From the NCBI RefSeq assembly GCF_057098645.1, contig NZ_CM169472.1: 64,000 nt of DNA. The stretch is one strand, 5' to 3'. Positions 43,893 to 44,901 of this stretch are shown here, in pieces (position 1 is the stretch's first letter; each line of letters starts with the position of its first letter). The position numbers and the translations under genes are program-made. The notes beneath the pieces are model-generated. The model made no database searches. It was not told where the DNA came from and saw only the letters and a program-made list of their open reading frames with translations.

Positions 43893-44072
43893 TTAGTCGG
43901 ATTTACGAATCATGAGACTTATAATGGAAGGAATGAGACTAAGCGGCCAGGTTAAACCTGTAATTATTGCAGCAAACAACCGATATGTTACTTTTTCTTC
44001 CGAGAAGATAAATATTAAAGTCGATGTCACAACCAGACCTATCAGGTAAGCTAACAGTAATTTATTGATCAC
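43893..44072 (-). CDS. Hypothetical small membrane protein, 59 aa (MINKLLLAYLIGLVVTSTLIFIFSEEKVTYRLFAAIITGLTWPLSLIPSIISLMIRKSD), GTG start
   Basis: Not in the ORF track as an ATG ORF; GGAGG at 44078-44082 with 5-nt spacer to GTG at 44072; two hydrophobic segments; directly downstream of ygeQ on the same strand. Confidence 0.4.
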   Translation of the reverse strand: MINKLLLAYLIGLVVTSTLIFIFSEEKVTYRLFAAIITGLTWPLSLIPSIISLMIRKSD

Positions 44073-44901
44073 TTTTACCTCCCCTTTCGATTTCTCTTTG
44101 AGCGGTCCTTTTAATCCAGGACCGCCTCATTATGAAAACTATTTAATTCCCTCATCATTGATAAGGTTGGACATCTCTTTCAACATGAGAGTCATTGAAG
44201 CTTTCGACCAATTTAGCGGAATGATAGGGCTTGGCGCTTCATGCAAAGTTCCCGACTTGTGGATATAGTTATAGCTTTCGGGAAGTGCCATTTCTGGTAC
44301 GCTCCTGCCATTTGCACCAATCATATTCTCGCCTGTTATTTGGGCCAATGATCTATTCATAAATTGTACTGAGTCATTCAAATACTCTTCTTTTCTTGAT
44401 TCTTTATAAACAATTGCTGCTGATTTTGCATACCATGAGTCAAAAAACCATTCTGCTTCTGTTGATGGAATGAAGCTCTTTTCTCTTTTTGCATGCGAAT
44501 TTTGATCGGTATCGGTTTTAATATCATTGAACCAAAAATTTGCCGACTGATAATTATCCTTCTCGTATCTTTTTATACCATACGGACCTGCTAGTTTTTT
44601 AACTATTTTTAGAACTTGCTCTTTTCTTCTGGTGTTTATCTTTGAAAGATTTGCAGGATAAATAACATTAAGTAAAGCCGCATCGGCTTCTCTGTAATGT
44701 TTATCTTTTTCCAGATAACCTGGGGATTCTCCCCCTAAATCAAGCTGTAACGTTATTCTTTCATAACCTTTATCTATGAGGTGGTTCAACCTCGTTGTTG
44801 AAAGAGTTTCATCCAGTTCATTGACTTTAGCTTCGCGTAGTAAATCAGAGACAAAAACAGAGTCTTTCTTCGAGAGTAGGTTTGACAAACTGGATTTGCC
44901 C

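Follow-up and report, generated by a model that had tools for sequence, protein, structure and literature searches.

A gene of 59 codons, located between ygeQ and eivF in the ETT2 island, encodes a third E. coli paralog of the GhoT/OrtT family, and is the ortholog of ECs3735 of O157:H7 Sakai. Given its likeness to toxins that have been characterised and the manner in which its locus is organised, we consider it likely that the product is an OrtT-like orphan membrane toxin. The gene was studied within a stretch of 64,000 nucleotides (hereafter the window), and the features of the locus are collected in Table 1.

As read on the minus strand and in the six-frame ORF list, the CDS consists of 59 codons and a stop codon, begins with GTG at 44072-44070, and specifies the peptide MINKLLLAYLIGLVVTSTLIFIFSEEKVTYRLFAAIITGLTWPLSLIPSIISLMIRKSD. 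Its start lies 66 nt 3' of the stop codon (44141-44139) of the C-terminal fragment of ygeQ, on the same strand, and on its other side a 345-nt spacer leads to eivF, after which comes eivG. The initial annotation had drawn attention to this ORF because of a GGAGG sequence 5 nt before GTG 44072, two hydrophobic segments in the predicted product, and a location between eivF and ygeQ, just downstream of the latter and in the same orientation. Each of these observations is borne out by the sequence, the ORF list, hydropathy and AlphaFold2. The ORF is also missing from the ATG-based ORF track, as had been stated, because a gene that starts with GTG does not enter such a track.

Two further statements of the initial annotation require correction. 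The gene had been described as unannotated, whereas PGAP marks exactly this CDS in every full-length RefSeq match examined and the Sakai annotation lists it as ECs3735. It had also been judged not assignable to a known family, whereas the peptide matches Pfam PF10753 (GhoT/OrtT), a family that is well known. The earlier interpretation is thus partly supported as a whole, and its proposal of a small membrane protein or toxic-peptide-like gene fits this family well.

Table 1. Features of the ECs3735 locus, in window positions.
Feature	Position	Strand	Evidence and remarks
eivF (AraC/InvF-type ETT2 regulator), downstream neighbour	42798..43547	-	ORF list, PGAP; = z4198/ECs3734
Spacer from toxin stop to eivF start, 29.6% GC	43548..43892	-	No terminator-like site on the gene strand
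GhoT/OrtT-family CDS	43893..44072	-	Ortholog of ECs3735 / WP_001301699.1; ORF list, Pfam, PGAP, Sakai table, dN/dS, AF2
Shine-Dalgarno GGAGG	44078..44082	-	5-nt spacer TAAAA to GTG; constant in 5 divergent E. coli alleles
GC-rich stem-loop GAGGCGGUCCU / AGGACCGCUC, no U-tract	44099..44129	-	Between ygeQ stop and toxin Shine-Dalgarno
Upstream ATG, out of frame in the window	44128..44130	-	Would open the 78-aa form of some gene finders
ygeQ C-terminal part (GH15 glycoside hydrolase), severed by IS2	44139..44889	-	262-codon ORF; Pfam GH15
IS2 copy inside ygeQ	44890..46221	-	5-bp target duplication CAAAC; 'IS3-like element IS2 family transposase'
ygeQ N-terminal part with signal peptide MKGKSALTLLLAGIFSCGTCQA	46222..47085	-	Translation identical to RM9872 YgeQ N-terminus

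Annotation, family membership and predicted structure

A megablast search with the 651-bp segment 43550-44200 found the region in 3,278 of 5,426 complete E. coli genomes, with at least 80% of the query covered in 1,306 of the 5,426 (about a quarter). The feature beneath every full-length match listed is a 'GhoT/OrtT family toxin' in RefSeq/PGAP. For example, strain O145 RM9872 is 100% identical over the 651 bp, and PGAP annotates the same 180-nt CDS there as WP_001301699.1; the toxin CDS carries the same PGAP annotation in four more divergent strains. In the Sakai gene table of a review of ETT2, ECs3735 is entered as '180 bp, ydcX, inner membrane protein' and sits between ECs3734/eivF and ECs3736/pkgA (PMC3977695). 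The last of these corresponds to ygeQ/b2863. For EDL933, in which eivF is z4198 and OI-115 extends to z4200, we infer that z4199 is the toxin ORF. Both the gene call and the family were therefore already known from RefSeq and the O157 Sakai annotation.

The Pfam model PF10753 (Toxin_GhoT_OrtT) aligns with residues 4-46 of the peptide over model positions 3-46 of 55 (i-Evalue 1.4e-11, 44.9 bits), and the same match is precomputed for all of the peptide's close relatives; none of the NCBIfam models reaches its cutoff for the peptide. By BLASTP, the closest characterised sequence is K-12 GhoT (39% identity over 46 aa, E 2e-12), followed by K-12 OrtT (25% identity, E 2e-6). The length of 59 aa accords with the size of the family (about 57 aa), and the G-x-T-W-P-[LM]-S motif of helix 2 is present. 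Across a family alignment of 31 sequences, T41, W42 and P43 never vary, while conservation reaches at least 90% at G39, L44, S45 and L46. The position of Phe38 in GhoT and OrtT is occupied by Ile36 in our peptide, such that hydrophobicity is kept and the residue is not, although this position is not a formal criterion of the family. The substitution F38R abolishes the toxicity of GhoT and reduces that of OrtT (PMC4344625). Members of the Escherichia branch additionally end in a polar tail, MIRKSD, that is absent from both GhoT and OrtT.

The hydropathy profile, with two hydrophobic segments flanking a polar SEEK loop, runs parallel to those of GhoT and OrtT. AlphaFold2, supplied with the alignment of 31 sequences, predicts helices at residues 2-23, 28-40 and 46-58 (mean pLDDT 87.6), arranged as a hairpin wherein the second helix is kinked or broken at the invariant T41-W42-P43. 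The product is therefore predicted to be a two-helix inner-membrane protein, with the same topology and motif as GhoT.

Among the characterised systems, OrtT (YdcX) is the one that the locus resembles in its organisation. Both proteins belong to PF10753, are of similar size (57 aa for OrtT), and have two hydrophobic helices and the TWP motif. No adjacent antitoxin gene was found for either, both carry GCU sites in the mRNA, and the Sakai annotation had already named ECs3735 a ydcX homolog. The two nevertheless differ in several respects. Their proteins share only 25-26% identity, the peptide described here has Ile in place of Phe38 as well as the polar C-terminal tail, and ortT resides in the core chromosome with ydcY as its neighbour, whereas the window gene resides in a horizontally acquired island of 36% GC beside a GH15 gene. 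Moreover, toxicity and induction by the stringent response are only putative for ECs3735.

Relatives of the peptide and their linkage to GH15 genes

When 1.84 billion representative proteins were searched exhaustively with phmmer, only 13 matches were returned. One of these (P0082, locus L008) has 59 aa and is 60-61% identical to the window peptide. Its locus is of the E. albertii type, in that the peptide matches one named Escherichia albertii, and shows the order GH15, peptide, AraC/eivF (88% identity), secretin (88%), InvE-like and FHIPEP. The next relatives, at 44-45% identity, are P0083, P0084/P0088 (Yersinia enterocolitica) and P0090, each of which has a GH15 gene beside it in a locus that is rich in IS elements and devoid of T3SS apparatus genes. 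A scan of species-representative genomes yielded a single locus, on a contig binned as Collinsella, and no new taxa. This contig (L011, JAIJJM010000090.1), assigned to a 'Collinsella sp.' MAG, bears a copy of the E. coli gene at 97% identity, and is most likely E. coli DNA that was mis-binned into an actinobacterial MAG.

In a survey of 12 genomic contexts, the association with GH15 genes was seen in one part of the family. The GH15-linked peptides group together on a single branch of a neighbour-joining tree; their motif reads TWPLSLIP, and that of the others TWPLSLPV. Within the TWPLSLIP sub-branch, a GH15 gene adjoins the peptide gene at all six loci that have enough context (L008, L009, L010, L012, L018 and the window), including those from E. 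coli, the E. albertii type and Yersinia enterocolitica; the contig of P0091 is too short to judge. L018 shows the opposite gene order, with the peptide gene first and GH15 856 nt further on, and has an InvH gene nearby (L018:2537-5823). The linked GH15 proteins are orthologous to YgeQ (58-76% identity), and an N-terminal signal peptide of the Sec type is present in each. This constant linkage of peptide and GH15 genes may be new.

Other branches served as controls, and the members examined have no GH15 neighbour: the one of Pluralibacter is paired with GhoS and the one of Enterobacter accompanies hipBA. The solitary PF10753 genes of Serratia and related Enterobacterales (formerly DUF2566) resemble the window gene in that they are single small genes of the same family with no GhoS. 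They differ in belonging to the other branch (TWPLSLPV, 58 aa) and in having core neighbours, Pmp3 and a TonB-dependent receptor, instead of GH15.

Genes of the YgeQ-type GH15 class are themselves widespread, occurring in Commensalibacter, Elusimicrobiota, Clostridiales, Bifidobacterium and others. Sequence comparison gave no relatives of YgeQ with solved structures. At one locus (L022:1-4647), a GH15 gene whose product is 65% identical to YgeQ stands beside prgH/prgI/prgJ/prgK-type genes, ParA/ParB-like genes and a gene for a SopD-like effector. Given these prgH/I/J/K-type neighbours, proximity to SPI-1-type T3SS clusters is a recurrent trait of the GH15 gene as such, also outside ETT2.

Linkage of this kind raises the alternative that the peptide is not primarily a toxin, and instead acts as an accessory membrane partner of secreted YgeQ that anchors the enzyme, regulates it or takes part in its release. 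The GhoT-like peptide and GH15 would then constitute a conserved two-gene cassette on mobile Enterobacterales islands, often at the edge of a SPI-1-type T3SS, and the peptide would serve the enzyme or the island, for instance in a controlled permeabilisation of the envelope for release or in island maintenance, rather than being a mere stress toxin. We regard this alternative, and the cassette that it implies, as unlikely. It draws on the fact that the adjacency to an orthologous GH15 gene is without exception at the six loci with context, holds both where T3SS genes are lacking and where the order is reversed, and is accompanied by parallel divergence of peptide and GH15. On the other hand, no GhoT-like ORF was found at the loci of three GH15 orthologs (65%, 54% and 56% identity), whether by tblastn or by an HMM search of all stop-to-stop segments. 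Because the GH15 partners carry Sec-type signal peptides, no holin-like helper is needed to cross the inner membrane. In addition, a strong stem-loop separates the two genes, and ygeQ is disrupted in both the window and Sakai while the peptide ORF is intact. Finally, the abundance of IS elements at these loci means that co-mobility is enough to explain the linkage.

Export of YgeQ by a holin-like action of the peptide was considered separately; it is weakened by the same signal peptides, and the PHROG holin match has an E of 0.33.

Putative toxicity, antitoxins and the translation start

Both GhoT and OrtT act as proteic toxins, causing membrane damage and a drop in ATP, and for OrtT there is no antitoxin (PMC4344625). 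By analogy, the peptide when abundant would most likely insert in the inner membrane and damage or depolarise it, which would lower ATP and slow growth. This putative toxicity is proposed on the basis of 39% and 25% identity to tested proteins; no functional study of ECs3735 appeared in the literature searched, and expression data for O157 GhoT (PMC5854682) concern only the canonical ghoT.

The immediate neighbours of the toxin gene are ygeQ and eivF, and neither side offers a GhoS-type antitoxin. When K-12 GhoS was compared with the 64-kb window by tblastn, all matches were at chance level, the best one (E 0.024, 34 aa) falling inside a 398-aa ORF 12 kb away, and a GhoS (PF11080) gene is likewise absent at all five orthologous loci. 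GhoS is thus absent in cis. This differs from the GhoS/GhoT arrangement, wherein ghoS is immediately upstream of ghoT in K-12, or GhoS (PF11080) follows the toxin in Pluralibacter. Given that no GhoS is found in the 64-kb window, the locus is organised like that of the orphan toxin OrtT and not like the type V system GhoST. The term 'orphan' must be understood as applying to the locus only, because ghoST occurs in 5,272 of the 5,426 complete E. coli genomes (97%) and could supply GhoS in trans.

Such control in trans, by which the chromosomal endoribonuclease GhoS would act on the window gene as a second client in a type V fashion, is an alternative that we judge to be decidedly unlikely. The prevalence of ghoST just given and the position of GhoT as the closest characterised relative speak for it. 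However, GhoS fails to neutralise OrtT, which at 63% identity is far closer to GhoT (PMC4344625), and the nucleotide sequence of the ECs3735-type gene is very different. The CDS also contains three GCU (MqsR) sites, as compared to two in ortT and none in ghoT, which implies a different regulatory logic; the significance of these sites is drawn from PMC4344625. Furthermore, the Yersinia members are also linked to GH15 and have no GhoS nearby. In the case of OrtT, none of the neighbour YdcY, GhoS, flanking RNAs or a genomic library brought neutralisation (PMC4344625), and an orphan toxin of the OrtT type remains our preferred reading. Membership in a defence system was rejected because PADLOC gave no match for either the peptide or YgeQ.

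Signals for expression were sought around the gene. No convincing promoter of its own was found, and promoter-like sites are no commoner than in shuffled sequence. The stem-loop between ygeQ and the toxin gene has an MFE of -18.2 kcal/mol (z = -5.0), and stem-loops of unrelated sequence, placed directly after the GH15 stop codon, occupy the same position in the E. albertii-type locus (L008:2053-2090, z -6.3) and in two Yersinia-type loci (L009:2255-2291, z -2.2, and L010:2245-2271, z -6.3), as well as at L012, which is grouped with L009. The element is thus conserved by position, not by sequence, over four lineages. The element in the window is probably either a 3' terminator or stabiliser of ygeQ or a 5'-UTR element of the toxin mRNA. 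We infer that its role is to end or to stabilise the GH15 transcript, with little read-through reaching the toxin gene as a result, which would probably keep expression of the toxin low. A stem that would block translation by covering the Shine-Dalgarno sequence and the start codon was rejected as a conserved feature: in E. coli it reaches -12.6 kcal/mol (z -2.2), and it is missing in four orthologs, ghoT and ortT.

Further downstream, the last ~75 nt before the eivF start are nearly identical in E. coli and the E. albertii-type locus (43548-43625 versus L008:2560-2638), whereas elsewhere in the spacer between the toxin gene and eivF the identity is only about 54%. Such a pattern suggests that a leader or regulatory site of eivF is under constraint.

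An antisense or nearby small RNA acting as the antitoxin of a type I-like module is highly improbable. A scan of 43000-44600 with Rfam gave no family over threshold and two sub-threshold matches, snoR22 and SymR, and the weak SymR-like match (43610-43661, plus strand) overlaps a sigma-70-like promoter site (43604-43633, plus strand) on the strand opposite the toxin gene. This match, at 20.3 bits where the gathering score is 61 (E 0.63), is treated as due to chance; it lies more than 230 nt past the toxin stop, where it does not overlap the gene, and promoter-like sites occur at chance number. The stem that would sequester the Shine-Dalgarno sequence is marginal and is not found in orthologs.

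Both 59-aa and 78-aa versions of the gene exist in the databases, because of a 1-nt indel just upstream of the Shine-Dalgarno sequence. An alignment of five alleles falls into two groups that differ by this indel at 44084-44090, CGAAAGGGGAGG versus CGTAA-GGGAGG. The upstream ATG (44130) is in frame only in the CGTAA-GGGAGG group, and a 1-nt insertion shifts it out of frame in the alleles of the window, D3 and SCU-301. In both groups GGAGG, the 5-nt spacer and GTG are invariant. Orthologs begin at the equivalent position with ATG or GTG, each behind its own Shine-Dalgarno sequence. Translation thus starts at GTG 44072, served by the GGAGG located 5 nt upstream.

That the real product would instead be the 78-aa form, as annotated in E. 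coli 042, is scarcely tenable. It is the commonest call in some sources, with P0016 on at least 1,000 contigs, and P0038 (78 aa) is the 'putative membrane protein' of E. coli 042, a start that many metagenome gene callers choose likewise. However, three of the alleles have the ATG out of frame while the Shine-Dalgarno sequence and GTG are intact, and the ATG lacks a Shine-Dalgarno sequence and falls within the stem-loop that adjoins the ygeQ stop. The extension is also absent from the E. albertii-type and Yersinia orthologs, and PGAP picks the 59-aa version in all strains examined.

The initial annotation had named conservation of the reading frame as a check on the gene, and the gene passes it, with clear signs of purifying selection. 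Between the E. coli allele groups, the CDS differs at six synonymous and only one or two nonsynonymous sites (pS 0.136, pN 0.008-0.015). Against the L008 ortholog of the E. albertii type, dN/dS is 0.13 with saturated synonymous sites (pS 0.70, pN 0.22), and the same comparison gives 0.07 for GH15 and 0.06 for eivF. The 59-codon ORF is therefore a real gene under purifying selection.

The opposing view, that this is an unexpressed chance ORF in AT-rich intergenic DNA, is effectively refuted. In its favour are the shortness of the ORF, its GTG start and the lack of a demonstrated promoter. However, the Pfam match is significant, the Shine-Dalgarno sequence is conserved, length and frame are kept in other species whose proteins are 60% and 45% identical (dN/dS 0.13-0.2), and 59 stop-free codons at 36% GC have a chance probability of ~0.014 per start.

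Disruption and loss of the locus in E. coli

The toxin CDS has a GC content of 36%, similar to that of ygeQ (37%) and eivF (38.5%), while the window average is 49%, and for this reason we consider the gene to be part of a horizontally acquired island. YgeQ is intact in RM9872, at 536 aa, and the K-12 annotation calls it 'putative lipoprotein YgeQ'. In the window, two IS2 copies of 1,332 nt that are 100% identical and inverted (36451-37782 and 44890-46221) bracket 7.1 kb comprising part of eivA, eivE, eivG, eivF, the toxin gene and the C-terminal part of ygeQ. The second copy stands between the toxin gene and the ygeQ promoter and thereby isolates the one from the other.

Each IS2 copy has its own 5-bp target duplication (GAAAC and CAAAC), and the gene order is colinear with that of RM9872, which is free of these elements; the arrangement is thus best described as two simple insertions. 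An inversion or a composite transposon between the two copies is rejected on the same grounds. Neither of the ygeQ-IS2 junctions was found as a single piece among the matches listed from the 5,426 complete E. coli genomes. Descent of K-12 from the IS2 configuration of the window is also rejected, as the K-12 IS2H junction is at a different site.

A second kind of change affects many more genomes. In approximately 1,970 complete E. coli genomes, the match to the 651-bp query ends after its first 75 nt. In strain M6, the end of ygeQ is fused to a remnant of eivJ at the junction ...CATAATGAG/TTACAGC (window 44125/44126; L021:1270-1280). A recurrent deletion from 44125 thus takes away the stem-loop and the toxin gene, together with everything from eivF to part of eivJ, and this ygeQ-eivJ deletion is the reason that most E. 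coli lack the ECs3735 paralog.

E. coli strains with the full end of ETT2 therefore carry a third GhoT/OrtT paralog, whose toxicity is putative. If the peptide is toxic, it would join OrtT as the second orphan membrane toxin found in nature, and the common ETT2 deletion would remove a toxin along with the genes of the island. Such a loss could be relevant when persistence or ETT2 phenotypes are studied, also with deletion mutants of the eivF region.
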